Source: Candidatus Versatilivorator sp.
GTDB lineage: Bacteria > Acidobacteriota > Terriglobia > Versatilivoradales > Versatilivoraceae
Direction: 5' to 3'
Length of the DNA stretch: 64,000 nucleotides
NCBI GenBank assembly: GCA_965207735.1
Contig: OZ242296.1
Coordinates: forward strand, 1,984,001-2,048,000
Shown here: piece by piece, positions 45,708 through 64,000 of the stretch
Layout: each line of letters begins with the position of its first letter
Position numbering within the stretch: position 1 is the stretch's first letter
Position numbers and translations under genes: made by a program
The notes under the pieces: model-generated
Told to the model about the DNA's origin: nothing
Database searches by the model: none
What the model saw: only the letters and a program-made list of their open reading frames with translations

Positions 45708-46784
45708 ATGCTAACCGAATCCGCCGGGCAGCACCCTGTCCCCGACGTGCTTGACCCGTTTCCCGAGGGTTGGTACTTCGTTGCCAGCCGTGAATCCATC
45801 CTCAAGGAAAAACTGATTGAGAAGACCTGGATGGGCGAAGATATCGTGGCTTGGTGCGACGGTGTGGGCGGCGTCTGCGTGGCTGAGGCGGTCTGTCCCC
45901 ACCTGGGCGCCAACCTGGGTCCGGCCGGCGGGGGCCGGGTGCGCAATTCCCGACTCGTCTGTCCGTTTCACGGCTTCGAGTTCGCCGTCAGCGGCCAATG
46001 CGTTGCCACCCCCTTTTCCCCGGCGCCCAGGTCCACCGGTCTGAGGGTGTTCGAGACGCGGGAAATGCTCGGCATGGTCTTCGCCTGGTGGGGGAAAAAC
46101 GACCGGCCGCCGCAATGGCGCCTTCCCGAGGATCCGCCGTCCGGACCCGACTGGAGCGAAATGGGATACAGGACGCTCAGATTTCCCGGTCATCCCCAGG
46201 AAACCACCGAAAATGCGGTGGACCTGGCGCACCTGCGTTACGTGCACGGCTACGGCAACGTGTCCCGGGTGGCGCCGCTATCGGTGGAAGGCGTCTGCCT
46301 CACGAGCTCCATCGACTTCAAACGCACCAGGACTATCGCCGGGATCGGCGACCTTGTGTTCGACGTCTCCGCCGCCACCTACGTCTTCGGACTGGGTTAC
46401 TCGCAAGTGGACATTCGCGAACGTACGATTGGCATGGATTCGCGTCTGTGGGTGCTGGCAACGCCCGTCGACGGCACACACATCGACCTCGTGCTGGCCG
46501 GGCAGGTGCGGGAGATACGTAAACCGAAGCGGCCCATCGTCGGTCTGAGGTTCGTTCCCACGAGCTTGCGCGCCGGGATCATGAACAGAATGATGATGGC
46601 CATTCAAAAGCAGGATGTTCTGCAGGATGTGGTGATCTGGGGAAGAAAAAGGTACCGGGCCCGCCCGCGCCTGTGCCGGTCCGACGGCGAGATCGGACGG
46701 TATCGACGCTACTGCCAACAGTTCTACCCGGATCATCGGGATGGCGGTCGGGATCGGTGTGAACCTCCGTCCGTAGAGTCCTGA
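45708..46784 (+). CDS. Rieske [2Fe-2S] oxygenase, cholesterol 7-desaturase (Neverland)/KshA-like
   Basis: FPEGWY, CPHLGA...CPFHG Rieske ligands, ENAVDLAHLRYVH mononuclear Fe site, and C-terminal QDVVIW..K.Y...DG.I..YRRY..QFY typical of the steroid-acting subgroup. Confidence 0.85.
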   Translation: MLTESAGQHPVPDVLDPFPEGWYFVASRESILKEKLIEKTWMGEDIVAWCDGVGGVCVAEAVCPHLGANLGPAGGGRVRNSRLVCPFHGFEFAVSGQCVATPFSPAPRSTGLRVFETREMLGMVFAWWGKNDRPPQWRLPEDPPSGPDWSEMGYRTLRFPGHPQETTENAVDLAHLRYVHGYGNVSRVAPLSVEGVCLTSSIDFKRTRTIAGIGDLVFDVSAATYVFGLGYSQVDIRERTIGMDSRLWVLATPVDGTHIDLVLAGQVREIRKPKRPIVGLRFVPTSLRAGIMNRMMMAIQKQDVLQDVVIWGRKRYRARPRLCRSDGEIGRYRRYCQQFYPDHRDGGRDRCEPPSVES

Positions 46785-46827: not shown

Positions 46828-48045
46828 ATGAGAAAACTAATCAGCTTCTTTATTGCGACTGTCATCCTTGTGGGCTCCGGCGCCCTGGCCTATTACCTGG
46901 TGTCTATGGCGCCTGAACCGGAGCGCCGCGAGCCACCGCCCCAAATCCCCTTTGCACAGACTGCCAGGGTTGTGGCCGGCTCAGGAGCCATCCCCGTATA
47001 CGGCGCCGGGACGGTGCGGCCCAGCGCCGAAATCGACATCGCTCCGCTGGTCGGCGGAAACGTGGTCTGGATGAATCCGGCGTTCCAGAGCGGAGGACGG
47101 ATCCGGGCGGGCCAGGCGATATTCCGAATCGAGAAGGAAGACTACCTGCATCGGGTGCGCCAGGTGGAAGCCGAACTCGAAGCTCGCCGGGTCGCCCTCT
47201 TCGTGGCCCGGGAAGAAGCGGCATTCGCCCGCAGCGAATTCGAGCAGTACTCCCGCCAGCAGCTCGAGGCAGGTGAGTCAGCGGGAGAGCCGGGCCCCCT
47301 TGCTCTTAAGGAACCCCAGATGAAGGCGGCCCAAGCGGCCATAGACCGTGTGGAATCTCAACTGGCCGATGCCAGGCTGGCCCTGTCCCGCACCGAAGTG
47401 CGAGCGCCCTTTGACGGCTACGTGCGCCACGAGTCGTTGGATGTGGGACAGTTTGTAACCACCGGCCAAGCCGTTGGGCGGCTGTTTGCCGCCGATGCGG
47501 TCGAGGTGGTGGTTCCCCTGTCCGACGCCAACGCCGCCTTGATCCCGGGGCTCTGGAAACTGCGGGCGGGGGACTCCAGAAGACGCGTGGCTGCTCGCGT
47601 CATCGCCAGATACGGTGACAAGAGTTACGTTTGGAAGGGTTACGTCGACCGGGCTGAAGTATCCATCGACGAGCAGTCGCGAACCATTGACGCAATCCTG
47701 CGCGTGCCCAACCCCTTTTCCGCGGGAGCCCCAGCCGAGGAAACCGATGAGCCCGGCGCCTCACCCCCGCTCCTGGTGGGCAAGTTTGTGGAGGTGGCGA
47801 TCCAGGGTCTTGCTCCTGAGAGCTACTTGCGGGTGCCGCGGGCGGCGCTGCACCCCGGCAACGAGGTTTGGACGGTGAGCGAAGACAAGAGGGTTAATGT
47901 AGTCCCGGTGCGCGTCCTTCAGCGCGTCAACGATGAGGCGTATATCATCGGGGCTCTCGAAGACGGGCAGTTGGCCATCATTGGGGGCATTCAGCATGTC
48001 ACCGAAGGCATGCTGGTACAGACCGGGGACGGCTCGGCTCCGTGA
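46828..48045 (+). CDS. RND efflux periplasmic adaptor (MFP)
   Basis: N-terminal TM helix, GTVRP, coiled hairpin, TEVRAPFDG, LLVGKFVEV, VPRAAL. Confidence 0.9.
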   Translation: MRKLISFFIATVILVGSGALAYYLVSMAPEPERREPPPQIPFAQTARVVAGSGAIPVYGAGTVRPSAEIDIAPLVGGNVVWMNPAFQSGGRIRAGQAIFRIEKEDYLHRVRQVEAELEARRVALFVAREEAAFARSEFEQYSRQQLEAGESAGEPGPLALKEPQMKAAQAAIDRVESQLADARLALSRTEVRAPFDGYVRHESLDVGQFVTTGQAVGRLFAADAVEVVVPLSDANAALIPGLWKLRAGDSRRRVAARVIARYGDKSYVWKGYVDRAEVSIDEQSRTIDAILRVPNPFSAGAPAEETDEPGASPPLLVGKFVEVAIQGLAPESYLRVPRAALHPGNEVWTVSEDKRVNVVPVRVLQRVNDEAYIIGALEDGQLAIIGGIQHVTEGMLVQTGDGSAP

Positions 48046-48062: not shown

Positions 48063-48073
48063 TATGCTAAAAT
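48063..48073 (+). promoter_or_regulatory. candidate extended -10 promoter (TATGCTAAAAT)
   Basis: Matches TRTGnTAnnnT. Conserved as TATGATAAAAT at 55501-55511 upstream of the second P450 copy. Confidence 0.5.
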
Positions 48074-48236
48074 GCGAAAGTTCAGTCATCTGGTGGCTCC
48101 CCCGTTTCTCGATGCCCGACACTTGTCGGACGGGGGCGAAGACGCTTGTGTCGCGAAGCGTGATGTTCGGTGCGTCCAATGACCGGATTCCGACAAGCGC
48201 ACCGGCCTTGAGCCGTCCGATCAGGACAGGAAAACT

Positions 48237-50264
48237 ATGGGCACGGCTGTGCAATCCCCGATACGCCTCGCCGAAGAGTTGATCCTCCTGATGCTCAATG
48301 AGCAGAGCGGCTATCTGGAGATGGTACCCGGCTGGAGTTTCTCCTGCGTCATGGCCGGCTCCGTCATCGCCGATCTTGCGCTGGAGGATCGAATCGACAG
48401 TGATTTGAACAGGTTGTATCTTGTGGATCCCACTCCAATCGGAGACAAGCTGCTCGACCCCACGCTCAAGGAGATCGCCGAGTCCCGGGAATCGTCGGAC
48501 ACGCAATTCTGGATCGAACGGACCGCGGGCCGTTCCGAAGAAATCGTCACGGCCACACTCGATCGCCTGGTGGAGAGGAAGATCCTCGACTACGAGATGG
48601 GTGGATTCTGGGGCCTCTCGCGCTCCGTTTCACGCTCAGGAACCTATCCGACCTCTGACTTCCACGTCCGCCAGGAAGCTAAATCAAGAGTCCTGAGCGT
48701 CATCTTGAACGACGACATCCCTGACCCGAGCGATGCCATTCTCATTGCCTTGATGCATACCTGCGGCGGTTTCAAGCTGGTGCTTTCACCGGAAGACTAC
48801 GAGGAGAAGCTCGAGCGGATCGAGACGATCGCCAAGCTGGATCTGGTAGGGCGGTCGGTTGCCAGCGCAGTGAGGGACAGCACCGCCCAACCGAAGACCC
48901 GTCGTGTTATCCAGGCCAAACCCATTCCGAAGCTCCGATTCGTCGACATCCTGCGACAGCGTGACCTTCGCTCGGGAAATATCCCGAAGGCGATGAACGG
49001 CATCTTCCGGGAGTATGGGCCGGTCGTCCGGCTTCCCTTCAAGATCCGCAAGTCACCCGTAGTCGCCTTGATGGGGCCGGACACCAATCAGTGGGTCAAC
49101 AAGTACGGGCGGTTCTACCTCCGCTCGAAGGACTACATCCAGGACCTGGAGCGTGCGTTCGGAGCCACCCGCACCATGCCGGGCATGGATGGCGCCGAGC
49201 ACTACAGGATGCGCAAGTCGCTTCAGGGCGCTTATTCCCGCGCCGCGCTGGGGCGGAATCTGCCGGAGTTGATCCACCAGTGCAGACATTCGCTGCGGCG
49301 ATGGAATGAAGGCGAGGTTTTGCGAGCAGGCCCGACCTTCAAGAACCACGTCAGCAGCCAAATCTCTCATCTGGTGATCGGAGTGGATTGCAGCCACTAC
49401 GTCGATGAACTGCTCGAATACGAACATCGCGCGCTGGTGACGCAAGTTCAGGGCGCATTGCCCAAGTTCATGCTGCGCACGCCCAAGATGAAGCGCTATG
49501 GAAAGCGCGTCCGTGAACTCCAGGAGGCGATCATCGCATCCCACACCCCGGCGCAGCGGAGGGGGAAGCCGCCGGATATTGCCGACGCAATCCTCGAACT
49601 CCACAAGAACGACCCCCAGTTCCTGCCGGAAACGGACATTACCTTCCCGTTTGTAGCGGCAATGGTCGCCAGCATCTATCTCGGCAGCGGGCTCGCCTTC
49701 GCAGTCTATTCCATGATTCGACACCCGGACCTGCACGCGAAGATCCAACGAGAAGCCGAGTTGCTCTTCGGCAACGGGCGTGAACCGCAGGCGGAGGACT
49801 TTAGTCACGACAGCATCGACGTCACCGTCCGCCTCTGCATGGAGTCCGCGCGCTTGTACCCGGTGATTCCCTGGCAGTTGAGAACGGTCATGAACGAATG
49901 TATTGTCAGTGGCTATGAAATTCCGGCCAAGACGATGCTATTGATTTGCCAGACGGCAACTCATTACGCCGAGGACCTCTTCAAGGACCCGCTCGCGTTC
50001 GACATAGACCGCTATCTGCCGGATCGGGGAGAACATGCGACCCCGGGCGCCTATGCCCCCTATGGCCTGGGCACGCACACTTGCCTTGGAAGTCGGTGGG
50101 TGGAACTGCAGATGGCCGTCAACATCCTGCTGATCGCGTACCACTTGAAGCTGGAGGTGACGCCCGCAGACTACAAACTTGGATTCAATCCCTTCCCGAC
50201 ATCTTCCCCCAACAAGAAGTTGAAGTTCCGCGTCGCTCAAATCAGGAACCCGATCCTGTCCTGA
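48237..50264 (+). CDS. GPP34 (GOLPH3/Vps74)-cytochrome P450 fusion, copy 1
   Basis: N-terminal ~210 aa IRLAEELILLML...AGSVIADLALEDRI...LDRLVERKIL (GPP34 pattern). C-terminal P450 with ESAR (ExxR), IDRY and heme motif PYGLGTHTCLG. Confidence 0.88.
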   Translation: MGTAVQSPIRLAEELILLMLNEQSGYLEMVPGWSFSCVMAGSVIADLALEDRIDSDLNRLYLVDPTPIGDKLLDPTLKEIAESRESSDTQFWIERTAGRSEEIVTATLDRLVERKILDYEMGGFWGLSRSVSRSGTYPTSDFHVRQEAKSRVLSVILNDDIPDPSDAILIALMHTCGGFKLVLSPEDYEEKLERIETIAKLDLVGRSVASAVRDSTAQPKTRRVIQAKPIPKLRFVDILRQRDLRSGNIPKAMNGIFREYGPVVRLPFKIRKSPVVALMGPDTNQWVNKYGRFYLRSKDYIQDLERAFGATRTMPGMDGAEHYRMRKSLQGAYSRAALGRNLPELIHQCRHSLRRWNEGEVLRAGPTFKNHVSSQISHLVIGVDCSHYVDELLEYEHRALVTQVQGALPKFMLRTPKMKRYGKRVRELQEAIIASHTPAQRRGKPPDIADAILELHKNDPQFLPETDITFPFVAAMVASIYLGSGLAFAVYSMIRHPDLHAKIQREAELLFGNGREPQAEDFSHDSIDVTVRLCMESARLYPVIPWQLRTVMNECIVSGYEIPAKTMLLICQTATHYAEDLFKDPLAFDIDRYLPDRGEHATPGAYAPYGLGTHTCLGSRWVELQMAVNILLIAYHLKLEVTPADYKLGFNPFPTSSPNKKLKFRVAQIRNPILS

Positions 50265-50664
50265 ACACCCCAGTCTCAACCCATTGAACCAACCCGTCTG
50301 ATGCAGCCGGGCCGCAGTCAAGCAACAGCAGGGCGCCAGTATCGGAAGTGATGGGACCGCCGTCGAAAGCAGCCACGAAGCCGCCTCGGCCGGAGCGAGA
50401 TCGATCGACGTTTTCCGCCTCCGGGGGTCAAGGTTGTGGCGTCATATGGGTGGCCACCTTACAAAGTTCGCCTATGCCGGTTTGTAGCAACTGCGTACGA
50501 CTTCAATGGTTCTGGATTCGGCCGCCTTTGAAGTGTTGGTCCGGCGCGTCATGTTCTGATACCGTTCCTTTTGAAAGTGTGGTTAAGTTAGGCATCGGAC
50601 TCAAACTCTTGCTGCAGCCCGCTGACACGCGGGTGCTTCTCCAGACCCGCTCCGACCCTTACCA

Positions 50665-53600
50665 ATGAATTTCAACAGAAACAACCACGCCGAACCCCGT
50701 GGACCGATTGCCTATATGGCGGGCAACAGCGTCGCGTCCAATCTGCTGATGTTCGGCATCATCGCTGCGGGCCTCGTGTCGCTGACCGGCCTCGAGCAAG
50801 AAGGGTGGCCCACGGTGCCCTTCTATCAGTTCGAAATCTCCGTGGCGCTCCCCGGGGCAACGCCCGAAGAGGTGGAGGAGGCCATCGTCGTCAAGATCGA
50901 GGATGAGGTCAGGGGACTGGCGGACGTGAAGGCGGTCAGGTCCGTAGCGGCCCCGGGAATCGCGTCCGTCAGGGTCGAATTCAAATCGGGCACGGACATG
51001 GGCGCGAAGAGGGATGAAGTCGAGTCGGCGGTCGGGCGCATTCAGACGTTCCCGGGCGGAGCCGAGCGGCCCCAAATCCGGGAAATGACCAACGCCCAGA
51101 GCATGATGCGCCTCATCCTCTACGGCGACGTACCCGAGCGGTCGCTGAAGGAGCTCGCCAACCGTATCGAGGACGATCTCGCTTCGCTCCCGAACGTGTC
51201 CCAGGTCGAGACCAGCGCTGTGCGCGACTACGAGATCTCGATCGAAGTACCAATGCAGCGGCTGCGGGCCCTTCGGCTTACTCTTACCGATGTCGCCAAT
51301 GCGATTCGCCGCGGTTCCCTGGACCTGTCCGCGGGCAGCATCAATACCGAGCAGTCCCAGGTGCGAATTCGGACCCTCGGTCAGAGCTACCATCAGCAGG
51401 ATTTCGAGGACATCGTCATCCTCGGCCGCGACGACGGCACAGTGGTGCGCCTGGGTGATATTGCCGAGGTGCGCGACGGATTCCAGGACTCAGATTTGAT
51501 CGTGCGGCACCAGGGTCATCCAGCCGTGTTCGTTGAGGTTTCGCGAGCCGACGGCGAGAGGGTGATGGATGTGTCGCGCGCCGTTCGGGACCATGTTGCG
51601 AACGAGATCACGCCCTCGCTCCCCGACGGCGTGGGCATCAGTATCTGGAGCGACGACTCTTCGGTCTTCGTGGAGCGCGGCCTCATTCTCCTCAAGAACG
51701 GAGGCATGGGGCTGTTGCTGGTCTTGCTCGCGCTGGGCCTTTTCCTCGAACTCCGGCTGGCGTTTTGGGTCGCCGTCGGTCTCGGCGTTTCCGCGATCGG
51801 CGCCCTGGCCGCCATGCTGATTTTCGACATCCCGCTCCATGAGATATCGCTCTTCGCGTTCGTGCTCGCGATCGGAATCGTCGTAGACGACGCGATCGTC
51901 GTGTCCGAGCACATTCACCAGGAGCGAATGCGCGGAACGGCGGGGGTTGTAGCGGCGATCCGGGGTGCGCGACGAATCAAGGTGCCGCTGATTTTCGCAG
52001 TGCTGACAACGGTCGTGGCGTTCCTTCCGCTGGCCTTCATACCCGCGGGCTTCGGAGAGGTCTGGAAGGCCCTGCCGATCGTCGTCATTGCCATGCTGCT
52101 GATTTCGCTGGCCGAATCGCTGCTGGTACTGCCCAACCATCTATCCCATCATCTGCACGGCCCGGATTGGGTGCCCGGTACGGGCACTGAACGAATCGTC
52201 TCCCGGATCCAGAATCGTGTCGATTCCTGGTTCAACAGTTTTGTACAGGGGCCCCTGGATCGTGGGATACAGTTCGCGACGGACTGGCCTGAGGTGACGG
52301 TCGCGGGGGCCGTCGCGCTGCTCATCCTGAGCATTTCCCTCATCCCGGCCGGCATCGTCCCCACCACCTTCGCAACAGCGGTCGAAGGCGACTTCGCAAT
52401 CGCCACCATCGAGATGCCGGACGGAACGACCGCGCAGCAGACGTACGCAGTGGCGCAACAGTTGGAGTCAGCCGGTCGCCGGGCCATGGAGCGGCTTTCC
52501 GAAGGCCGGCCCGCGGATGCGCCTCCTCTACTGTCCGGCGTTACGGTCGTCGTCGGTCAGCGTTCGCGGATCGAAACCGGGGGCCTCAACCCCTCGCCCA
52601 CCCTGAACCCGGAAGCCAATGTCGCCACCATCGAGTTCAAGCTCCTGAGCGCGCAGCAGCGGCGCATCACTTCGGGGGAAGTCGTGCAGGCATGGCGCGA
52701 GGAGGTGGGTGTCATGCCTCATGTGCGCGCGGTCACCTTCATCAGCGAGATCTACACACTGGGCAACCCGGTCGAGGCCGCGCTGTCCCACCCGGATCCG
52801 GAACGCCTGGTCGAGATCGCATCTTCCGCAGTCGCTGGCCTTGGCGGAGTCGGAGGCGTCTTCGACATACGCTCTGATCACACTCGCGGCATCCCGGAAG
52901 TTCAGATGGGATTGCGTCCCGAAGCGCGCACCCTCGGCCTCACGCTCGATGATCTTGCCCGGCAGACGAGAGCCGCCTTCTTTGGCGTAGAGGCCGTGCG
53001 GGTGCAGCGAGGACGTGAAGAAGTTCGGGTTTATGTGCGGCTACCCGAGGAGCAGCGTAATGCGATCACCGACGTCGAGAGATACTGGCTCCGTACGCCA
53101 ACCGGTGCCGACGTGCCGTTAAGCCGCGTGGCTTCGCTGAGTTCGGGCACATCGCCGCCGGCCATCCGGCGCCAAGACGGCCAGCGCATTGTCACGGTCA
53201 CCGCTGACGTGGATGCCAGTGTGATTTCCGCCGCGACCGCCAATGACATTCTGGAGAACACTATCTTCGCGGAACTCATCGACGAAAACCCGGAACTCAC
53301 CTACACCTTCGGAGGTGAACAGCAGCAGCAGCTCGACTCTCTAGGCGGTCTATATCGCGGATTCGTAATCGCGTTGCTCATGATCTTCGCGCTGCTGGCC
53401 ATTCCGCTGCGCTCCTATACCAAACCGTTCATCGTCATGGCCATCATCCCGTTTGGGTTCATCGGCGTGATCCTGGGCCACTGGGTCCTGGGGGTGGCCG
53501 TGAGCGCGGAATCCTTCGTCGGGATATTCGGCCTCGCCGGCGTGGTGGTGAACGATTCCCTGGTGATGATCGATTTCACCGATCAGAAGCTCAGGGAAGA

Positions 53601-53844
53601 CATTCCGGTGCGAACCGCGATCATCGAGGGTGCGAAGGGACGATTTCGCCCGGTCATGCTTACTTCCCTGACCACCTTCCTCGGCTTCACCCCCCTTATT
53701 CTCGAAGACGCGATTCAGGCGCAGTTCTTTGTTCCCTTTGCCGCCTCGATCGGCTGCGGCATCCTCTTCACCACGACAATGGTCATGTTTCTGGTGCCCG
53801 CGCTTTCCTCGATCCATCAGCGCCTGACCTCGGCGCGGGGCTGA
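50665..53844 (+). CDS. RND efflux permease (AcrB-like)
   Basis: PGATPEEVEE, IGIVVDDAIVV, GVVVNDSLVM, RFRPVMLTSLTT. Two periplasmic loops, 1059 aa. Confidence 0.93.
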   Translation: MNFNRNNHAEPRGPIAYMAGNSVASNLLMFGIIAAGLVSLTGLEQEGWPTVPFYQFEISVALPGATPEEVEEAIVVKIEDEVRGLADVKAVRSVAAPGIASVRVEFKSGTDMGAKRDEVESAVGRIQTFPGGAERPQIREMTNAQSMMRLILYGDVPERSLKELANRIEDDLASLPNVSQVETSAVRDYEISIEVPMQRLRALRLTLTDVANAIRRGSLDLSAGSINTEQSQVRIRTLGQSYHQQDFEDIVILGRDDGTVVRLGDIAEVRDGFQDSDLIVRHQGHPAVFVEVSRADGERVMDVSRAVRDHVANEITPSLPDGVGISIWSDDSSVFVERGLILLKNGGMGLLLVLLALGLFLELRLAFWVAVGLGVSAIGALAAMLIFDIPLHEISLFAFVLAIGIVVDDAIVVSEHIHQERMRGTAGVVAAIRGARRIKVPLIFAVLTTVVAFLPLAFIPAGFGEVWKALPIVVIAMLLISLAESLLVLPNHLSHHLHGPDWVPGTGTERIVSRIQNRVDSWFNSFVQGPLDRGIQFATDWPEVTVAGAVALLILSISLIPAGIVPTTFATAVEGDFAIATIEMPDGTTAQQTYAVAQQLESAGRRAMERLSEGRPADAPPLLSGVTVVVGQRSRIETGGLNPSPTLNPEANVATIEFKLLSAQQRRITSGEVVQAWREEVGVMPHVRAVTFISEIYTLGNPVEAALSHPDPERLVEIASSAVAGLGGVGGVFDIRSDHTRGIPEVQMGLRPEARTLGLTLDDLARQTRAAFFGVEAVRVQRGREEVRVYVRLPEEQRNAITDVERYWLRTPTGADVPLSRVASLSSGTSPPAIRRQDGQRIVTVTADVDASVISAATANDILENTIFAELIDENPELTYTFGGEQQQQLDSLGGLYRGFVIALLMIFALLAIPLRSYTKPFIVMAIIPFGFIGVILGHWVLGVAVSAESFVGIFGLAGVVVNDSLVMIDFTDQKLREDIPVRTAIIEGAKGRFRPVMLTSLTTFLGFTPLILEDAIQAQFFVPFAASIGCGILFTTTMVMFLVPALSSIHQRLTSARG

Positions 53845-54063: not shown

Positions 54064-55116
54064 TTACCCCCGAAGAGGCCGGCGCACCAAGAAACAGTAG
54101 AGCGACGTGAAGATTCCGGCCCGGCCCCCGGCGACATAAGCGCTTGCGGTCCGATCCAGCAGGCTGACGACCTCCGTCGAGCCCTTCGGGAACACACCGA
54201 GATATTCGGCCATCCTGGATCCCCACTTCCAAGCCTTGCGGCCCATCGGAGTCCGGCGGAAAGCACTGCCGAGCAGTCCGCCCCGGGTTTCCATGGGCTG
54301 ATACCACGGCGTGATCGGACCATGCTGGGCGCGGGCGAGGTCCAACCCCTCCATGACTTCGAATCCCGCGGTTTCGAGCGCCCTGTTTACCTCACGAAAC
54401 GTTGCGATTTCCTTGAGCGCGATGCCGTGCATGAGTTCCCGCTTGATGGCGCGATGCCGATCGTTACCGGGATCGAACAGGTCCGTCATGCACATTTCCT
54501 GACCCCAGAAGAGGGCTCCCGGTTTCAGGACGCGGTAGATTTCGGCGAACGCAGCCGCCTTGTCGGCCGCGTGGCAGGTCGATTCGATCGCGTAGCCACT
54601 GTCGAACGTTTTGTCCGCGATGCCTTTCATTTCCATGAAGCTGCACACCAGGCAGTCGGTCATGTCATCGAGCCCCGCAGCCGCGTTCAGCCGCTTGGCT
54701 TTGTTGCACTGGACTTCACTTATGTTGACCCCGACGACCCTGACACCGGCCTCGCGGGCGACCCGGCGCATTGGACCACCGATCCCGCAGCCGATGTCGA
54801 CTACCGTCATGCCCGGCCGCAGTTCGAGCTTGGAGATCATGAGTTGCTGGTGCCGGAGCTTGGAGTCCTCCAAGCTCTCGCCAGGCGACAGCGGCGCGAA
54901 GTGAAGGGATTCTCCCCAACCCCAGACCATGAAGTCGCTACAAAGGTCGTAGTATTCCCTGACGGTCGGCGTGTGGTCGTAGCCCGCTTCGGAATCCTGG
55001 TGGGACACCCTTCTGGTCCATCCGTCGAAGTCCTGCACGCGGCGGACGACGTTCGACCCGCCGAATGCGGCCTTCAGCGCATTGGATAATTCGTGGAATT
55101 GCCTCGCCGACCTCAT
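54064..55116 (-). CDS. sterol C24-methyltransferase (SMT/Erg6)-like SAM methyltransferase
   Basis: SMT regions: YYD...WGWGESLHFAP (I), DIGCGIGGPMR (II), AIESTCHA (III), EIYRVLKPG (IV). Confidence 0.88.
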   Translation of the reverse strand: MRSARQFHELSNALKAAFGGSNVVRRVQDFDGWTRRVSHQDSEAGYDHTPTVREYYDLCSDFMVWGWGESLHFAPLSPGESLEDSKLRHQQLMISKLELRPGMTVVDIGCGIGGPMRRVAREAGVRVVGVNISEVQCNKAKRLNAAAGLDDMTDCLVCSFMEMKGIADKTFDSGYAIESTCHAADKAAAFAEIYRVLKPGALFWGQEMCMTDLFDPGNDRHRAIKRELMHGIALKEIATFREVNRALETAGFEVMEGLDLARAQHGPITPWYQPMETRGGLLGSAFRRTPMGRKAWKWGSRMAEYLGVFPKGSTEVVSLLDRTASAYVAGGRAGIFTSLYCFLVRRPLRG

Positions 55117-55394
55117 GGCAGGTTCTCCAGTCACTCCGGGACGGCCATGCGGGCTTCCTCCTGGAACTGATTGGTTGCGCTCCTCTCAGTTTCTCGGATT
55201 TAGCCCGTATGAACAACCATCACAGAATTCACAGCCAGCCCTATCGACCATCCCCGGTGACGGACCGAAAAAATCAAGCTAGCGTGGAAAGCTAGATTCA
55301 ACTTACTTAACCAAATGTTCAACAAGGAATGGTATACGAACATGACGCGCCTGACCATTACTTCAAAGACGGCCGAATCCAGAACCAATTGAGT

Positions 55395-55484
55395 CTGGAA
55401 GACGGGCAGTGGGTCATCACCGGCGGCAGTCAGCACGTCAGCGAAGGCATGGTGGTAGAGACCGGGGACGGGCCGACGCGGTGA
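55395..55484 (+). pseudogene. 3' remnant of the MFP gene carried by the segmental duplication
   Basis: Translates LEDGQWVITGGSQHVSEGMVVETGDGPTR*, compared with the MFP C-terminus LEDGQLAIIGGIQHVTEGMLVQTGDGSAP*. Confidence 0.85.
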
Positions 55485-55612
55485 GTCGGTTTAAAAGCCG
55501 TATGATAAAATGCGAAAGTTCAGTCATTTGCCGACTCCCCCGTTTCTCGATGTCCGGAGTTAGCCCGCAATTCTCGCCAAGCCGCTAAGCATACGGTAGG
55601 TGCAGGAAGATC

Positions 55613-57640
55613 ATGAGCTCGTCCGTGCAATCCCCAATACGCCTCGCCGAAGAGTTGGTCCTCCTGATGCTCAACGAGCAGAGCGGCTACCTGGAGATGG
55701 TGCCGGGCTGGAGTTTCTCCTGCGTCATGGCCGGCGCCGTGATCGCCGATCTGGCGCTGGAGGATCGAATCGACAGTGATTTGAACAGGATGTATCTTAC
55801 CGATCCCACGCCGACCGGAGACTCCCTGCTCGACCCCACGCTCAAGGAGATCGCCGAGTCCCGGGAAACGTCGGACACTCAATTCTGGATCGAACGGACC
55901 GCGGGCCGTTCCGACGAAATCGTCACGACCACGCTGGATCGCCTGGTGGAGAGGAAAATCCTCGACTACGAGAGTGGTGGATTCTGGGGACTTTCGCGCT
56001 CGGTTTCCCGTTCGGGAACCTATCAGACTTCCGACCTCCAAATCCGCCAGGAAGCCAAGGCAAGAGTGCTGAGCGTCATCTTGAACGACGACATCCCTGA
56101 TCCGAGCGATGCCATTCTCATTGCCTTGATGCATACTTGCAGCGGTTTCAAGCTGGTGCTTTCGCCGGAAGACTACCAAGAGAAGCTCGAGCGAATCGAG
56201 ACGATTGCCAAGCTGGATCTGGTAGGGCGGTCGGTTGCCAGCGCAGTGAGGGACAGCACCGCCCAACCGAAGACCCGTCGTGTCATCCAAGCCAAACCCA
56301 TTCCGAAACTCCGATTCGTCGACATCCTGCGACAACGTGACCTTCGCTCGGGAAATATCCCGAAGGCGATGAACGGCATCTTCCGTGAGTACGGGCCGGT
56401 CGTCCAGCTTCCCTTCAAGATCCGCAAGTCGACCGTAGTCGCCTTGATGGGGCCGGACACCAATCAGTGGGTCAACAAGTACGGGCGGTTCTACCTGCGC
56501 TCGAAGGACTACATCCAGGATCTGGAACGTGCGTTCGGAGCCACCCGCACCATGCCGGGCATGGATGGCGCCGAGCACTACAGGATGCGCAAGTCGCTTC
56601 AGGGTGCTTATTCCCGTGCCGCGCTCGGGCGGAAGCTGCCGGAGTTGATCCACCAATGCAGACAATCGCTGTGCCGATGGAATGAAGGCGAGGTTTTGCG
56701 AGCAGGCCCGACCTTCAAGAAACACGTCAGCAGCCAAATCTCTCATCTGGTGATCGGAGTGGATTGCGGCCATTACGTCGACGAACTGCTTGAATACGAA
56801 CATCGCGCGCTGGTGACGCAAGTTCAGGGCGCATTGCCCAAGTTCATGCTGCGCACGCCCAAGATGAAGCGCTATGGAAAGCGTGTCCGTGAACTCCAGG
56901 AAGCGATAACCGCATCGCACACGCCGGCTCAGCGGAGGGGAAAGCCGCCGGATATTGCCGACGCAATCCTCGAACTTCACAAGAACGACCCGCAGTTCCT
57001 GCCGGAAACGGACATTACCTTCCCGTTTGTAGCATCAATGGTCGCCAGCATCTATCTCGGCAGCGGGCTCGCCTTCGCGGTCTATTCCATGATTCGACAC
57101 CCGGACCTGTACGCGAAGATCCAACGAGAAGCCGAGTTGCTCTTCGGAAACGGACGTGAACCGCAAGCGGAGGACTTTAGTCACGAGAGCATCGACGCGA
57201 CCGTCCGCCTCTGCATGGAGTCCGCGCGTCTGTACCCGGTGATTCCCTGGCAGTTGAGAACGGTCATGAACGAGTGTATTGTCAGTGGCTATGAAATTCC
57301 GGCCAAGACGATGCTATTGATTTGCCAGACGGCAACTCACTATGCGGAGGACCTGTTCAAGGACCCGCTGGACTTCGACATAGACCGTTATCTACCGGAT
57401 CGGGCGGAACATACGACCCCGGGCGCCTATGCCCCCTATGGCTTGGGAACGCACACTTGCCTTGGAAGTCGGTGGGTGGAACTGCAGATGGCCGTCAATA
57501 TCCTGCTCATCGCCTACCACTTGAAGCTGGACGTGATGCCCGCGGACTACAAACTTGGATTCAATCCCTTCCCGACATCTTCCCCCAACAAGAAGTTGAA
57601 GTTCCGCGTCACTCAAATCAGGAATCCGGTCCTGTCTTGA
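55613..57640 (+). CDS. GPP34 (GOLPH3/Vps74)-cytochrome P450 fusion, copy 2
   Basis: Same length (675 aa) and motifs as copy 1, with roughly 40 substitutions by manual comparison. Confidence 0.88.
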   Translation: MSSSVQSPIRLAEELVLLMLNEQSGYLEMVPGWSFSCVMAGAVIADLALEDRIDSDLNRMYLTDPTPTGDSLLDPTLKEIAESRETSDTQFWIERTAGRSDEIVTTTLDRLVERKILDYESGGFWGLSRSVSRSGTYQTSDLQIRQEAKARVLSVILNDDIPDPSDAILIALMHTCSGFKLVLSPEDYQEKLERIETIAKLDLVGRSVASAVRDSTAQPKTRRVIQAKPIPKLRFVDILRQRDLRSGNIPKAMNGIFREYGPVVQLPFKIRKSTVVALMGPDTNQWVNKYGRFYLRSKDYIQDLERAFGATRTMPGMDGAEHYRMRKSLQGAYSRAALGRKLPELIHQCRQSLCRWNEGEVLRAGPTFKKHVSSQISHLVIGVDCGHYVDELLEYEHRALVTQVQGALPKFMLRTPKMKRYGKRVRELQEAITASHTPAQRRGKPPDIADAILELHKNDPQFLPETDITFPFVASMVASIYLGSGLAFAVYSMIRHPDLYAKIQREAELLFGNGREPQAEDFSHESIDATVRLCMESARLYPVIPWQLRTVMNECIVSGYEIPAKTMLLICQTATHYAEDLFKDPLDFDIDRYLPDRAEHTTPGAYAPYGLGTHTCLGSRWVELQMAVNILLIAYHLKLDVMPADYKLGFNPFPTSSPNKKLKFRVTQIRNPVLS

Positions 57641-57944: not shown

Positions 57945-58931
57945 ATGACGATGACGGACCATAGAGGCGAGGGCTGTCTGAGAGTTGTCCTGGCCCAGCC
58001 CCGAGGCTTTTGCGCGGGCGTGGAGCGGGCGATAGAGATCGTTGAGGCGGCGCTGCGGAAATTCGGACCTCCGGTATATGTGCGGCATGAAATCGTCCAC
58101 AACCGGCGCGTCGTCGAGAATCTGAAGGCGAAGGGTGTGCACTTCGTGGAGGAGATCGAACAGATTCCAAAAGGGATGGTAGCCGTCTTTAGCGCTCACG
58201 GGGTGGCAGCGCAGGTCGAGCAGGACGCCGCGACACGGGGGCTGCGCGCGATCGATGCTACCTGTCCGCTTGTGTCCAAGGTGCACGCGGAAGGACGGCG
58301 GTACGCCCGCGGCGGCTACGACATCGTGCTGATCGGCCACGAGAACCACCCGGAAGTTGAAGGCACGGTCGGGCAAATTCCAGGCAGGGTCATCGTGATC
58401 GGAGACGTCGAGGGGGTCGAGGCTCTGACGGTGCGCGATCCGGAGAAGGTGGCTTACATTACGCAGACGACCCTTTCCGTTGACGATACGCGTGAGGTAA
58501 TCGCGGCACTTCGACGGCGGTTTCCGAAGATCGTAGGACCGGACGTCAAGGATATCTGTTACGCGACACAGAACCGCCAGGCGGCTGTCCGAATGGCGGC
58601 CTCGATCGTGGATGTGGTTCTGGTGGTGGGCGCCCGCAACAGCTCGAACTCGAACCGGCTGTGCGAGGTGGCTGAGGACGCTGGCGTGCCTGGCTTCCTG
58701 GTCGAAGACGCGTCGAAGCTCGATCCGGCCTGGCTGGAGGGCAAGAAGAGCGTCTGCATTACAGCCGGTGCGTCCGCTCCGGAGGAACTGATCTGGGAGG
58801 TCATCGGGAAGCTCCGGGAATACGCAACGCTGGACGTTTCAACCATGGACGGGATTGTCGAGCACGTGCACTTCGGCCTGCCCGATGGGCTCGATGCCGC
58901 CGGCCCGGGGAGCGAAAGCCGAGCGACCTGA
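57945..58931 (+). CDS. ispH: 4-hydroxy-3-methylbut-2-enyl diphosphate reductase
   Basis: [64 protein letters not shown]. Confidence 0.97.
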
Positions 58932-58950: not shown

Positions 58951-59079
58951 ATGGCCGCAAGTCACTCGAGCTCTTCGGCGTCGAGCGACATCACATTCCG
59001 GACGGAGATGCTGGACGGGTTGCAGTTCATCCTCTTCAAGCTCTTTACCTTCGGTTTGCCCAAAACGTCGGCGGCATGA
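58951..59079 (+). CDS. possible 42-aa peptide translationally coupled to squalene synthase
   Basis: [42 protein letters not shown] fills the ispH-SQS gap, and its TGA overlaps the next ATG (ATGA). Confidence 0.35.
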
Positions 59080-60152
59080 GCGCGACTTCTTCAAATGGAC
59101 CGACCGACAGCGATCTTTCCTGCCAGACGCGTTTGCTGCAAGACGTTTCACGCACCTTTGCTCTCACCATTCCGCAGCTCCCCCATCGCTTGCGATGGCC
59201 CGTAACCAACGCTTATCTCCTGTGTCGGATTGCCGACACCATCGAGGACGAGCCTGCGCTCTCGCTGGCGCAGAAGCAGGCGTTCCTGGACCGGTTGGTT
59301 CAAATGATTGCCGGTCGTGAAGATGCGACCCCATTCGCTCGTGACCTCGGCTCACTGCTGTCTTCATCCACCACCGAGCAGGAGCGGGACCTTGTTGCCA
59401 ACTGCAGCCGCGTAATCCGTATCACTGCAAGTCTCCGTTCCAGCCAGCGCGGAGCCATCGTGCGTTGCTTGCGAATCATGTCTCGCGGCATGATGGAGTT
59501 CCAGCGAAATCCAAACCCGGTCGGGCTGAAGGACTGTTCCTGTCTGGATCGCTATTGCTATTACGTTGCGGGAGTTGTGGGGGAGATGCTCACCGAGTTG
59601 TTCTGCGACTACTCCGCCGAAGTCAACAAGCAGCGAAAGGGTCTGCTGGAATTGTCGGTGGCCTACGCCCAGGGACTGCAGATGACCAACATCCTCAAGG
59701 ACCTGTGGGACGACCGGCGGCGCGGTGTGTGCTGGCTTCCCAGAGACGTGTTCCGGGCATCAGGTTTCGAGTTGGATCAACTGTCCCCCGGCGAGGCCGA
59801 TCCAAGGTTCCTCGATGGGTTCTTCGAGCTGGTGGCGATTACCGTGCGCTTGCTCCGGGATGGATTGCGGTACGTTCTGCTCATCCCTGCCCATGAAGCC
59901 GGCCTCCGCCGCTATCTATTATGGAGCCTGGGCTTGTCCGTGCTCACGTTGCGGCGCCTCTACAGGACGCCCTCATTCATGAGCGGCCGGAATATAAGAC
60001 TGTCGCGGTTGAGCGTCGCAGCGCTCATTGTCTTGAGCAGCGTCCTGGCTCGGTCGGATTCCGCCTTGAAGTTCCTGTTCAAGGCGGTCACCCGCGGTCT
60101 GCCCGTCGCCGCGCAGCCTCAACCGGTCAACTCCTTGAATATTGAGCGCTAA
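59076..60152 (+). CDS. squalene/phytoene synthase family (farnesyl-diphosphate farnesyltransferase-like)
   Basis: [35 protein letters not shown] and [10 protein letters not shown], matching the single-enzyme squalene-synthase-type signature. Confidence 0.9.
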
Positions 60153-60273: not shown

Positions 60274-61524
60274 CTAGAAATTGTAGCTAAAGCTGAACGA
60301 GAAGAAGCTGTCGCGACGGATCTCATGGAGGATGTCGGATTCGTCCACGTTGGGAAAGGCGATCGATTCCACGCTGAGTGACCACCGGTCCGTGATTCTC
60401 CGATTGAATTCCAGGGTCACCACCTGCGAGGAACGGGTCGCATCGAACATGATACCGGCCAGCAACTCCGTTCCCTGGACATCATTGGGCGCCCACCGCG
60501 TGGCCACGAAGACATCGTTATCGAAGAAATTGGTCGCGTTGCCTCCCCGCCCGTCGTAGTTCCACTCGCCCAGAAGACTGACATCGTGGGCCGATCCCCA
60601 CACCGAATAGAAGGTGTATTCAAGCCCGGAGACCAGCGCTCCGTAGTCTTGCTTCGCCCTCCGAAGGTTGCGCGCCCCGGACCGCTGAATCGTTTCGAGC
60701 TTGAGCAGCCAGGCGCCGAGCGTGAGTTGCGCGTCCAGGCCCAATTGGCGGATCTGCTCGTAATAGGGCCGCAGAACAGGAGTGCCGCCCGAGTTCAGCT
60801 CCGGTTGAAAGAAGGGTTCGCGGCTGGTGCCGTCAAAGACGCTGGCGCCGATGTCCAGGGGACCGAAACTGTGGCTGTAACGGGCTGCGACGTCGAAGTG
60901 CCACTGCTTGGCGCGGCTCTCGTAGAGGGGGTTGTCCTTGTCGACGACCAGCGAGTAGCGCAGGCGGCCCCCGGACCCCGGAAAGGTGCGGGAACGGTGG
61001 TAGGGCAGGCCGAAAACCTCGACCACGCCCCAATCCGCGGACCAGGTGAGATGGGCCATGGGCTGGCCCAGCTTTTCCTCTTCGTCGGGGTGTTCGATCA
61101 GATCGGTCTGGTTGACGATATCGACCAGGTGGCGGGATTCCGCCACCCCCCAGAACACGCGGTCGACCCCGAGGCGCAACTCCCATTCACCGCGGTCGCT
61201 CTGGCCGAACCACAGCAGATAGGCCTCGCGCAGGTCGAAATGGGTTCGGTGAGGGTCGGCGCTGTCGTAGCGGAAAAAGGGGGTCAGCGTAAGGCTGCGG
61301 CCGCGGGCGTCTTCAAAATGGAATTCCGGTTCCGCCAACACGCCGCTGGCGTGCCAGCTCTGCTCCGGATAGGCTCCGGACTGGGGATGCCAGCGGCCCT
61401 CCAGGCTCAGGCGACCGGAAAAATCGTAGTCAATGGGCGGAGCCGAAGACCCTGGGGCCACCCCGAACAAGGCCACCCAAATCGAAACGAGAACGATGTG
61501 GACAAGGGCCGCGCCCCACCTCAT
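60274..61524 (-). CDS. putative outer-membrane beta-barrel protein
   Basis: Signal peptide, DLREAY...GVDRVFWG pattern, alternating beta strands, C-terminal FSFSYNF aromatic end. Translationally coupled to the LolA-like gene. Confidence 0.75.
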   Translation of the reverse strand: MRWGAALVHIVLVSIWVALFGVAPGSSAPPIDYDFSGRLSLEGRWHPQSGAYPEQSWHASGVLAEPEFHFEDARGRSLTLTPFFRYDSADPHRTHFDLREAYLLWFGQSDRGEWELRLGVDRVFWGVAESRHLVDIVNQTDLIEHPDEEEKLGQPMAHLTWSADWGVVEVFGLPYHRSRTFPGSGGRLRYSLVVDKDNPLYESRAKQWHFDVAARYSHSFGPLDIGASVFDGTSREPFFQPELNSGGTPVLRPYYEQIRQLGLDAQLTLGAWLLKLETIQRSGARNLRRAKQDYGALVSGLEYTFYSVWGSAHDVSLLGEWNYDGRGGNATNFFDNDVFVATRWAPNDVQGTELLAGIMFDATRSSQVVTLEFNRRITDRWSLSVESIAFPNVDESDILHEIRRDSFFSFSFSYNF

Positions 61525-62348
61525 CAACGGATTCGTCTCAGCCCTGTTCGTGTGAAGTCGTTCTCGTTCAGATTGTTCTGGAATTGAAAATCCGTCCACG
61601 TCAGAGTCGTGCTCTTGCCGGTGATGTGATTGACCATCGTCATCTTTCCGGCATACCAGTAGCGGTCGAGATACCGGCCGTAGTCTGCAACGGTAAGCGT
61701 CTTCAGGTGGGCGTTCTTGCGATCGTAGTAGTCTACCTTCCAGACGCGCAGCTCGTCCAGGTCCTGCCAGACCTCCTGACGGCTGTAGCCGGAGCGCCGG
61801 TCCGCCGGGATGCGTTCCGAGACGGTGCAGGTCAGATCCCCGCACGGCTCCTCCCGCAGGTAGCGATAGGTAAACTTCTCCACCTCCGGAGTGCCCATGT
61901 CTTCGTAGGCGAATTCACTGCCCATGAAGGAGCCGGACTGGTTCGACGAGCTGATTCGCTTGACCCGTCGCAGCGCCGGCAGATAGAGCCACTGTTCGTC
62001 ATCTTTCTCCCTGTGGGAGTGGATCAGCAACGCGGTCCCCTTCACGTCGCGCGGCTCGTCGAACACGAACAGGTTCTTGTCTCCCTCTCCCGGCACCTCC
62101 AGAACCTGCAAACGCAACTGGCGCCGACTCTCCTGCCCTCCCCGGTTGCGGAGCACCATGGTCTGACGCGCGCTAAAATCACCGAAGCCCTCGCCGCGCT
62201 CACGCGCATCCAGGGCGATCTTGAGGCCTCGGGCCTCCGGGTCCGACTCCTGGCTCAAAGCCGGAGTCCAAGCGGACAAAAACGCCCAAACAGCCAGACA
62301 ACTCATGCAATACAGGGATGGCCGACGGCGGAAAAAGGGATGATTCAT
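61524..62348 (-). CDS. outer-membrane lipoprotein-sorting (LolA-like) protein
   Basis: FDEPRDVKGTALL, DDEQWLYLPALRRVKRI, SGSFMGSEFAYED, DYYDRK..LKTL. Confidence 0.88.
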   Translation of the reverse strand: MNHPFFRRRPSLYCMSCLAVWAFLSAWTPALSQESDPEARGLKIALDARERGEGFGDFSARQTMVLRNRGGQESRRQLRLQVLEVPGEGDKNLFVFDEPRDVKGTALLIHSHREKDDEQWLYLPALRRVKRISSSNQSGSFMGSEFAYEDMGTPEVEKFTYRYLREEPCGDLTCTVSERIPADRRSGYSRQEVWQDLDELRVWKVDYYDRKNAHLKTLTVADYGRYLDRYWYAGKMTMVNHITGKSTTLTWTDFQFQNNLNENDFTRTGLRRIR

Positions 62349-64000
62349 GATTTGTCTCGATCGATGGCCATCAGCAGGGGCGGGAGCAGCAGAAAATCAG
62401 CCAGAAGCGCAAACCCCAGCGTGATGGCGACCAGCAGGCCCAGCACGGAGCTGACCTGAAATCCCGATGAAGCAAACACCAGAAAACTTGCCGACAAAAC
62501 CGCGGTCGTGGTCCACAACGCGTGGCCGACGGTGCGGAAAGTGGCGCGCACCGACTCGGAAGCGGAGGCTCCTCCGCGGCGGGCTTCGAGGTACTTGCTC
62601 ATGAAATGGATGGTATCGTCAACCACAATGCCGAATGCCACGGCGCAGACCACCGAGGCGGAAAGGCCCACCTGACCCACCAGGTAGCCCCACAGACCGA
62701 AGCTCATGGCCGCGGGAATGAAGTTGGGAAACAGGCTGACCAGACCGAACCGCAGGCTCTTGAACGTGCCGACAAGGATCAGCGAAATCATGGCCATGGC
62801 CACGATCGTACTGCGCAGCATGCTCTCGATGTTTCTCTGGGCCAAGTGAGCGAAGACCATTGTGACGCCCGATGCTTCTCCGGTCAATCCGGGCGCGTTG
62901 GCCCCGACCCACTCCCGGGCCCGCTCGTCCAGTTGGCGCAGACCCCGTGCGGACGCGCTGGCCACCACCGTCATTCGCGTGGCCGACTTGGCGACGTCGA
63001 TGCGGTCGTTCAAGTCATTGCCGAGCGGCAGCGACAGTTCGTACAGCAGCAGGTTCTGGGCTGCCAGCGCCGGATCCTCGGGAATTCGATAGAAGGCGGG
63101 GTCGTCGCCGTGCATGTTCTTGTTCAGGCGTTTCATGACGTCGGGAAACGACTGAACGAAGTTCACCTCCGGCTGATCCCGATACCATTCGGCAAAGGCG
63201 TCGGCCCTGCGCAGATAGGCCGGATCGGTGATACCGCCTTCGCGCCCGGAGTCCAGCGAGTACTCGAGCGTATCCAGCCCGGTCAGGTTTTCGATGACGA
63301 AGTCGGTATCGCTGCGGAAACTGTAACGCTGATCGAAATAACGCGTCCAATTGTCGCTCAGCTCGACGCGCGGAATGCCGGCGACCAGTACCACTGTCAC
63401 AATGGAGACCACCGCCAGCAGGACCTTGCGCCGTTCCACCACGAATGCGCCGAAGCGGTCGAAGAAGCCGGGACGGTCATCCGGAGTCGGATTCGGGCGC
63501 AACGGCAGAATCGAAAGCAAGGCCGGCAGAAACGTCATCGAGTAGACGAAAATGCACACTAGGCCAAAAGCCACCATATTGCCCAGAACATGGAAGGGGG
63601 GCGAATCCGAGGCATTCAGGCTCAGAAATCCGATCGCGGTTGTCAATGCGGCCAGGAAGACCGGGTAGGCATTGATCCGAAGCGATTTTCGGATCGCCTC
63701 CTCCCGGCTCTGCCCCTCCCGGAGGCCTGCCAGGGTGCTGGTGACGATGTGGACCGCGTGCGCGACGGCGATGGCCATGACGATGATCGGCACACCGGCG
63801 CTGGCGGGGCTGAATATCTGGCCGGTCCAACCGGCGAAACCCATGGTGCCGGCGATAACGAGTACGAACATGGTCACGATCGCCAGGGTTGCCAATATCG
63901 ACTTCAAGAGCAGGGCCGAGCTCACCACGATGATCAGGAACACGATCGGCACCAGCGTCTCCAGGTCGGCCGCGGTCGCCGCAGCCAGCACTCGATTCAT
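62345..64000 (-). CDS. MMPL/RND family lipid transporter (5' part beyond the window)
   Basis: LTTAIGFLSL, GIVVDDTIHF, multiple TM helices. The ORF runs to the window edge. Confidence 0.9.
   Translation of the reverse strand: MNRVLAAATAADLETLVPIVFLIIVVSSALLLKSILATLAIVTMFVLVIAGTMGFAGWTGQIFSPASAGVPIIVMAIAVAHAVHIVTSTLAGLREGQSREEAIRKSLRINAYPVFLAALTTAIGFLSLNASDSPPFHVLGNMVAFGLVCIFVYSMTFLPALLSILPLRPNPTPDDRPGFFDRFGAFVVERRKVLLAVVSIVTVVLVAGIPRVELSDNWTRYFDQRYSFRSDTDFVIENLTGLDTLEYSLDSGREGGITDPAYLRRADAFAEWYRDQPEVNFVQSFPDVMKRLNKNMHGDDPAFYRIPEDPALAAQNLLLYELSLPLGNDLNDRIDVAKSATRMTVVASASARGLRQLDERAREWVGANAPGLTGEASGVTMVFAHLAQRNIESMLRSTIVAMAMISLILVGTFKSLRFGLVSLFPNFIPAAMSFGLWGYLVGQVGLSASVVCAVAFGIVVDDTIHFMSKYLEARRGGASASESVRATFRTVGHALWTTTAVLSASFLVFASSGFQVSSVLGLLVAITLGFALLADFLLLPPLLMAIDRDKS

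Follow-up and report, generated by a model that had tools for sequence, protein, structure and literature searches.

In a 64,000-nucleotide stretch of the forward strand of Candidatus Versatilivorator sp. (Acidobacteriota, Terriglobia; assembly GCA_965207735.1, contig OZ242296.1, positions 1,984,001 to 2,048,000; hereafter the window), two open reading frames (ORFs) join an N-terminal GPP34 domain, related to eukaryotic GOLPH3/Vps74, to a cytochrome P450. The two copies lie among genes for a Rieske oxygenase, a sterol-methyltransferase-like protein, the adaptor and the permease of a resistance-nodulation-division (RND) efflux pump, IspH, and a squalene-synthase-like enzyme (Table 1). The P450 lacks one residue in the centre of its I-helix, and homologues with this deletion recur beside the same oxygenase, methyltransferase, and export genes (hereafter the cassette) at other loci.

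Copy 1 is an uninterrupted ORF of 675 amino acids (aa) that runs from ATG to TGA, and copy 2 is an equally intact ORF of the same length; the two proteins are identical at 636 of 675 aa (94%) and the two genes at 1900 of 2028 nucleotides (nt), with a ratio of nonsynonymous to synonymous substitution rates (dN/dS) of 0.14. Pfam recognizes GPP34 (PF05719) at residues 11-213 of copy 1, covering 199 of the 201 profile positions (E 4.7e-32), and p450 (PF00067) at residues 241-646 (E 4.5e-34). An earlier, sequence-only reading of the window had described one continuous ORF, present twice, in which a GPP34 domain expected within residues 1-215 precedes a complete P450, and our data bear this out. Because both domains are present in all of the best 120 of 1276 homologues, the fusion is not an artefact of a frameshift or read-through. 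The closest relatives are from Terriglobia metagenome-assembled genomes (91-96%), a match was found in 11 of 301 genomes of the phylum, and the two copies are the only GPP34 genes of this genome. Within the fusion family, mean column conservation is 0.82 for the GPP34 domain and 0.83 for the P450 domain, and an alignment of 98 members was used to generate an AlphaFold model (scores in Table 1). We also considered a fusion of the P450 to a redox partner; this was rejected because Pfam shows GPP34 and p450 only, with no fused flavin or Fe-S domain. The N-terminal domain contains a single invariant Cys (C37) and no cluster motif. Promoter and terminator scans at the locus gave results at chance level, and the pieces 92-97% alike to the locus in an RNA run labelled as sponge metagenome provide no evidence of transcription of this locus.

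Copies 1 and 2 form a direct repeat with a spacing of 7,376 bp, and the RND permease and the methyltransferase lie between them. An assembly artefact as the source of the duplicate was rejected because all four unique junctions of the two-copy layout are spanned by contigs of run X2, which may derive from the source sample, and of a second study (X4, X7), these contigs being pieces 92-97% alike, and because locus L049 corresponds to copy 1 and locus L090 to copy 2, each with its own downstream genes. Locus L001, which is 95-98% alike across the region, contains one chimeric copy in which the first ~600 nt resemble copy 1 and the remainder copy 2, and it is devoid of the permease-methyltransferase block; thus, recombination between copies can add or drop this block, and the direction could be either. 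Inside the two copies, the block is flanked by a 91-bp inverted repeat (86% alike; 50503-50591 and 55302-55392).

The GPP34 domain and the I-helix

The N-terminal domain matches the solved GOLPH3/Vps74 structures in phmmer (E 5.8e-6), as does a profile of 20 bacterial GPP34 domains (E 1e-18), and in the AlphaFold model it is helical with a hairpin. The fold searches used the whole-chain model and returned P450s only, so their results concern the P450 part; a single-sequence fold of the GPP34 domain reached a pLDDT of only 36. In GOLPH3, W81, R90, R171, and R174 form the pocket for phosphatidylinositol 4-phosphate (PI4P), and alanine swaps in this pocket abolish binding by GOLPH3/Vps74 (Wood et al. 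2009, PMC2806290). In a profile alignment of copy 1 with GOLPH3, W81 corresponds to V30/P31, with the conserved W33 lying 2-3 residues off, while R90 corresponds to A40, R171 to E101, and R174 to V104. The R90 site is A, the R171 site D/E, and the R174 site V/I, each in 97 of 98 aligned members, and Arg or Lys occurs at the three Arg sites in 0 of 98. The net charge of the domain is -15 (mean of -17 over 122 sequences) versus +17 for the remainder of the protein (aa 216-675).

These observations bear on the proposal that proteins of this architecture are secreted effectors that bind host PI4P and block phagosome maturation (Ferreira et al., Microbiome 2025, PMC11706023), and on the suggestion of the sequence-only reading that the domain targets the P450 to anionic-lipid membranes. 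Homology to GOLPH3 is genuine, and the reported restriction to sponge symbionts and in situ expression (PMC11706023) would suit an effector. Moreover, some other bacterial GPP34 domains keep an Arg at the R174 position and two short GPP34 proteins are basic; because of this Arg, the argument from the pocket covers the present clade only. In this clade, however, the domain is acidic and the three Arg are replaced at sites where alanine swaps abolish binding in GOLPH3/Vps74 (PMC2806290). Because the most hydrophobic 19-residue window of the fusion is the I-helix, as judged by a hydropathy scan and not a dedicated predictor, no signal peptide or transmembrane anchor is evident, and the three secretion markers that were searched (VipB, the VirB4 family, and HrcV) had no match in this 100% complete genome. 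The operon-like gene context is, in addition, metabolic. We conclude that targeting to anionic lipids fails as an explanation for this clade and that a PI4P-binding effector is highly improbable.

The domain retains a hydrophobic hairpin at the position of the GOLPH3 beta3/beta4 hairpin. The three residues at its tip are conserved (F124 in 97, W125 in 95, and L127 in 96 of 98 members), and the model predicts strands at E117-120 and E124-127. It is an evenly balanced possibility that the GPP34 domain docks to the membrane through this hairpin and without PI4P. Such docking would resemble in spirit the suggestion of the sequence-only reading that the domain replaces the transmembrane anchor of eukaryotic sterol P450s.

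The C-terminal part of the model has a standard P450 fold (best match with Z 34.5 and a root-mean-square deviation of 3.1 over 432 aligned residues). In the centre of the I-helix, members read ASI-YL, or AGH-YL in more distant members, versus AGLDT in relatives, i.e. the acid-alcohol pair is lost together with a one-residue deletion, and all 98 members have Tyr481. Proteins with the deletion form a single monophyletic clade (FastTree support of 0.993, and of 1.0 in a 57-sequence tree) that is separate from the CYP51 proteins of steroid clusters. Because this clade is nested among fused proteins with an intact I-helix, the fusion likely predates the deletion, subject to the root chosen for the tree. 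The best sequence match of the P450 in the PDB is Methylococcus CYP51 (6MCW/7JJ1; E 2e-19). An identity as CYP51 was rejected because the P450 falls in a separate clade and has no His-Thr pair in the I-helix.

Several natural P450s are active without the Thr, including EryF, CYP74, and CYP152. Together with the presence of Cys616 in 98 of 98 members, the invariant E536/R539 of the ExxR motif, 149 near-invariant P450 positions that are kept, and a dN/dS of 0.11 in the P450 part, this argues against the possibility that the deletion clade has lost all monooxygenase activity and acts as a heme-based carrier of lipids or as a sensor for the pump. What speaks for a dead enzyme is that the acid-alcohol pair governs proton delivery in most P450s and that its loss usually impairs turnover (PMC10100219), that no redox partner is encoded nearby, and that linkage to the RND permease (59 of 77 loci) exceeds that to any enzyme. 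On balance, we consider a non-catalytic role very unlikely.

Gene neighbourhoods of the fusion family

We collected 120 loci, 43 from genomes and 77 from metagenomes (the latter from the best 80 of 405 hits), of which five fragments were dropped and 115 were classified; 77 belong to the deletion clade and 38 have an intact I-helix (35 stand-alone and three fused). With cassette genes called at an identity of at least 45%, one or more of the Rieske, sterol methyltransferase (SMT), flavin oxidase, AcrB, and HlyD genes were present in 69 of the 77 deletion-clade loci versus none of the 38 loci with an intact I-helix, and a looser screen agreed. In the deletion clade, AcrB was found at 59 loci, Rieske at 48, HlyD at 44, TolC at 38, SMT at 23, and flavin oxidase at 22. 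Because some loci come from kin, or from one organism present in several assemblies, they are not independent, and these figures are counts and not a statistical test. Gene order within the cassette is shuffled and the chromosomal sites differ across three phyla (Acidobacteriota, Rhodothermales, and Latescibacterota). The cassette flavoprotein is LkcE-like (E 3e-28), and we speculate that it could be a peroxide donor. In this genome, the flavoprotein gene (L160:7012-8370, minus strand) lies ~1.4 Mb from the cassette and is 74% identical to the cassette-linked copies.

We also listed all GPP34 genes across 48 genomes and fetched those without a cassette. The neighbours of 17 fused paralogues with an intact I-helix, several of them near-identical kin, were compared. 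Fourteen of the 17 adjoin acyl-, sulfo- or phosphotransferase, cyclase, polyketide synthase (PKS) or ligase genes. Directly 3' of seven lies an Acyl_transf_3 membrane acyltransferase (L140, L141, L142, L143, L145, L149, and L151); three are followed by a sulfotransferase, two of these lying directly after a squalene-hopene cyclase; two are followed by an EcKL kinase-like gene; and one precedes an acyl-CoA ligase. A squalene-hopene cyclase, a GPP34-P450 with a His-Thr I-helix, and a sulfotransferase share one gene run (L139:5993-11140, L152, and L138), and in one case a type III PKS, an ICMT-family methyltransferase, and a GPP34-P450 are consecutive (L135:5963-9606). The L138 fusion is part of an RND block with a cyclase close by, and the neighbours of L097 and of a second L135 copy are uninformative. 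The GPP34 domain also occurs stand-alone in the surveyed genomes, and at six short GPP34 loci that were examined there were no such consistent neighbours. The pattern of oxidation followed by conjugation in the fused paralogues fits the tailoring of small-molecule lipids.

The same survey bears on a different role for the GPP34 domain, i.e. that it is a protein adaptor or a regulatory lid that binds the basic surface of the P450, or a partner enzyme or the pump. The opposite charges of the two parts (-15 and +17), their equal conservation, and the absence of an electron donor from the cassette are compatible with this idea; the whole-chain pTM of 0.83 suggests a fixed arrangement in the predicted model; and the GOLPH3 hairpin has a second role in oligomer contacts (PMC2806290). 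However, because GPP34 occurs on P450s with an intact I-helix and different neighbours, and stand-alone, no single partner explains the domain, and we regard an adaptor or lid as unlikely.

Table 1 Features in and around the two fusion copies (positions within the window)
Feature	Position	Strand	Basis or remarks
Rieske oxygenase with KshA C-terminal domain (steroid-ring oxygenase type)	45708..46784	+	Pfam; best PDB matches KshA, E 1e-22
RND periplasmic adaptor (HlyD/MFP)	46828..48045	+	Pfam
GPP34-P450 fusion, copy 1	48237..50264	+	675 aa; both domains in Pfam; AlphaFold pLDDT 85.5, pTM 0.83
Acidic GPP34/GOLPH3-like domain (aa 11-213) with PI4P pocket residues substituted	48267..48875	+	Pfam, phmmer, profile alignment
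Hydrophobic hairpin tip F124, W125, L127, aligned with GOLPH3 beta3/beta4 hairpin	48606..48617	+	Alignment, model strands
Cytochrome P450 domain (aa 241-646)	48957..50174	+	Basic (+17, aa 216-675); retains ExxR (536-539) and heme Cys616
I-helix centre ASIYL (aa 478-482)	49668..49682	+	One residue short versus relatives; acid-alcohol pair lacking; Tyr481 in all 98 members
RND efflux permease (AcrB family)	50665..53844	+	Pfam
Sterol-methyltransferase-like gene	54064..55134	-	Sterol_MT_C E 2.5e-14; S-adenosylmethionine domain
Remnant of adaptor gene 3' end plus intergenic DNA, 5' of copy 2	55394..55556	+	83% like 47955-48118
GPP34-P450 fusion, copy 2	55613..57640	+	Same Pfam domains; direct repeat, spacing to copy 1 7,376 bp
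IspH, extra copy (isoprenoid precursor supply)	57945..58931	+	Pfam
Squalene/phytoene synthase family, closest to squalene synthase	59076..60152	+	Below family cut-off
Putative lipid transport trio	60274..64000	-	The three genes below
Weak DUF1302-like outer-membrane protein	60274-61845	-	Part of putative trio
LolA-like/DUF1329	61524-62348	-	Part of putative trio
MMPL/sterol-sensing transporter	62345 to beyond window	-	Part of putative trio

Of the genes that follow copy 2 in the window, squalene synthase adjoins the cassette in seven and IspH in five of 44 loci, and the trio of MMPL, LolA-like, and outer-membrane proteins is linked to the fusion in just five. A third squalene-synthase-like stretch (89%) lies elsewhere in the genome together with an IspH fragment (90%), facing an mpaB/rubber-oxygenase-like gene (L162:5317-7531). 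Just past the window (2048858-2049955, minus strand), a conserved 365-aa protein of no known family, whose look-alikes in the Atlas are unnamed Acidobacteriota clusters, adjoins the MMPL trio in five of the 44 loci; it is followed by a TolC gene, a second, incomplete permease, and a second squalene-synthase-like gene. Upstream of the cassette, all on the minus strand, are a 4221-aa ORF of repeated modules (31391-44056), whose homologue at L042 matches subtilase and SWM repeat families and which has partial relatives just beyond the window; a group II intron reverse transcriptase/maturase (29362-30720); a 1292-aa protein with Spondin_N and a glucose/sorbosone dehydrogenase domain (25284-29162); and a phage-type integrase (23627-24856). 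Spondin_N genes are found near the cassette in nine of the 44 loci.

Substrate and proposed role

The sequence-only reading had linked the fusion to lipid or sterol chemistry, and the neighbouring genes support this link well. The methyltransferase carries a Sterol_MT_C domain and shares 45% identity over 298 aa with the SMT that adjoins an oxidosqualene cyclase (OSC) in L132, a cluster of the type reported by Kelly 2022 (PMC9531527) and Brown 2023 (PMC10070321); the SMTs of such clusters are 43-45% identical to it. Symbiont SMTs methylate sterols in vitro (Brown 2023, PMC10070321). The Rieske oxygenase, whose nearest solved structures are KshA, likewise points to a sterol and is the single such gene in the genome. 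Moreover, an ERG4/ERG24-family sterol reductase lies next to a DUF1295 gene (L161:6454-8564; 1558453-1560563) in this genome without a sterol cyclase, and is at least 77% identical in 18 of 48 related genomes. Because genome searches found no epoxidase or OSC here, and because OSC was found in only four of 43 carrier genomes and in none of the fetched flanks, a sterol would come from outside, and de novo synthesis by this organism was rejected. Steroid catabolism is not indicated because HsaC, the single ring-cleavage dioxygenase marker that was searched, had no match in the genome. Altogether, we consider it probable that the substrate of the fusion P450 is a sterol.

Several observations weigh against the interpretation of the fusion as a membrane-docked sterol-tailoring P450. 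The 45% threshold for cassette genes favours near relatives, the loci include kin and one organism in several assemblies, two of the intact paralogues (L138 and L143) adjoin more distant RND genes, and no ferredoxin or reductase is conserved among the cassette loci. No solved structure exceeds 21% identity to the P450, the top structural matches of the P450 tie among fatty-acid, cholesterol, and sterol-demethylase P450s (Z 34.5, 34.4, and 34.2), and the pair whose loss usually impairs P450 turnover (PMC10100219) is missing. As for docking, several paralogues with an intact I-helix have a weaker aromatic hairpin, and the acidic GPP34 domain could be repelled by anionic membranes. As for the sterol, the substrate-region motif of the methyltransferase is FMVWGWG versus FYEFGWG in cyclase-adjacent SMTs, differing at three positions, and the gene adjoins the fusion at only 23 of 77 loci and is present genome-wide at high identity in ~25 of 43 carriers. 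Finally, the genome encodes a divergent squalene-hopene-type cyclase (L044:6635-8551), which, with squalene synthase and IspH, would allow a home-made triterpenoid as substrate. Read by eye, the neighbours of this cyclase are polyprenyl-synthase-like and radical-SAM-like ORFs.

These last points also favour a variant in which the logic of the cassette is the same and the substrate is not a sterol but a hopanoid, a different triterpenoid derived from squalene, or some other long-chain lipid of the cell's own making. The squalene synthase and IspH genes that adjoin the cassette in this lineage, the divergent cyclase, the paralogues beside a hopene cyclase or a type III PKS, the altered methyltransferase motif, and a fatty-acid P450 as top structural match are all consistent with it. 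However, a strong cyclase match (E 1e-30) was obtained in only 13 of 48 cassette genomes, the Sterol_MT_C and KshA_C domains point to sterols, and a sterol-reductase-family gene travels in the same genomes. We therefore view a non-sterol substrate as possible but not likely.

Our working hypothesis is that the fusion P450 works in the cytoplasm, docked on a membrane, and modifies an imported sterol-type lipid that is then exported. Specifically, a sterol would enter from outside, either from the host or from cyclase-bearing neighbours; the methyltransferase would C-methylate its side chain and the KshA-like Rieske enzyme would oxidize its rings; and the P450 would then act on an already oxygenated product. 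A hydroxyl of the substrate or the invariant Tyr481 might replace the lost Thr, or the chemistry could be non-standard, such as desaturation or C-C cleavage. GPP34 would dock the P450 on the inner membrane by way of the hydrophobic hairpin and not by PI4P, and the RND pump would export the product. The tailoring-and-export cassette as a whole would be mobile. We judge this complete chain of steps to be about as likely to be right as wrong, while we are confident in the broader conclusion that the fusion is a lipid-tailoring enzyme and not an effector.

Rearranged or cleaved sterols are usually credited to sponges. A wider proposal, which we put forward only as a doubtful one, is that GPP34 in bacteria serves generally as a lipid-handling module by which P450s reach membrane lipids, each paralogue being tied to its own scaffold or conjugation step (hopanoid sulfation, acylation, phosphorylation, polyketide lipid, sterol), and that the deletion clade represents a mechanistically new type of P450. 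Together with the Rieske enzyme and the methyltransferase, this clade would convert host sterols to some of these rearranged or cleaved sterols. If the lipid-tailoring hypothesis is right, it gives bacterial GPP34 a testable function and corrects the published symbiosis model; in addition, a compact gene set common to symbiont phyla could account for sterol modification in sponges, which would be relevant to the natural products of sponges and to sterane biomarkers. Enzymologists also have a direct target in a conserved P450 clade whose I-helix is shortened and lacks the acid-alcohol pair.

Comparison with known systems

The fusion architecture itself is already known. GPP34_L, which comprises 656 GPP34+P450 proteins, is reported only in sponge symbionts, is expressed in situ, and has a proposed role as a secreted PI4P-binding effector (PMC11706023). 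Of the sequence-only reading, the domain call and the lipid/sterol link stand, while the novelty of the architecture does not, nor does targeting to anionic lipids. That reading did not mention the I-helix deletion or the conserved cassette. The present protein is a member of GPP34_L, with the identical order of PF05719 and PF00067, occurrence in Acidobacteriota and other symbiont phyla, and several copies per genome. In that paper GPP34_L is handled as a single group, and the passages available to us do not address PI4P residues, the I-helix, or gene neighbours; its main text, to the extent accessible, contains no mention of sterol, lipid, threonine, methyltransferase, or signal peptide, and its supplement includes a flanking-gene figure (Fig. 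S11) that may show some neighbours. Here, by contrast, GPP34_L splits into a deletion clade with a Rieske/SMT/RND cassette and intact paralogues with conjugating or cyclase genes, and the two copies are 94% identical, unlike the mostly ancient paralogues described there. The cassette and the shortened I-helix were not found in print in literature searches that covered subscription journals thinly, and the interpretation as a metabolic enzyme family instead of a host-targeting effector was not found in the literature searched.

Steroid clusters of sponge symbionts, as far as described in the available parts of two studies (Kelly 2022, PMC9531527; Brown 2023, PMC10070321), hold SMO-OSC, ERG24, CYP51, and SdmA/B for de novo synthesis and no GPP34, and the searchable supplements of the latter contain no mention of P450, Rieske, Golgi, AcrB, or two methyltransferase motifs. 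Unlike these clusters, with their ERG24, CYP51, and OSC operon, the cassette has no cyclase; the same hosts carry such steroid clusters in four of 43 genomes. Methylococcus CYP51 (PDB 6MCW/7JJ1) and the CYP51 of the sponge-symbiont clusters retain the His-Thr pair, whereas the fusion P450 lies in another clade. The neighbouring Rieske gene resembles KshA, the 3-ketosteroid 9-alpha-hydroxylase, in having Rieske and KshA_C domains and in its best PDB matches; it is, however, a distant match (Table 1) and only 22% like the SdmA-type gene of L132. With GOLPH3/Vps74 (PDB 3KN1, 2ZII; PMC2806290), the fusion shares homology across the whole domain and the position of the hydrophobic beta-hairpin, but in the fusion the basic PI4P pocket is replaced, the domain is net acidic, and it is joined to an enzyme.

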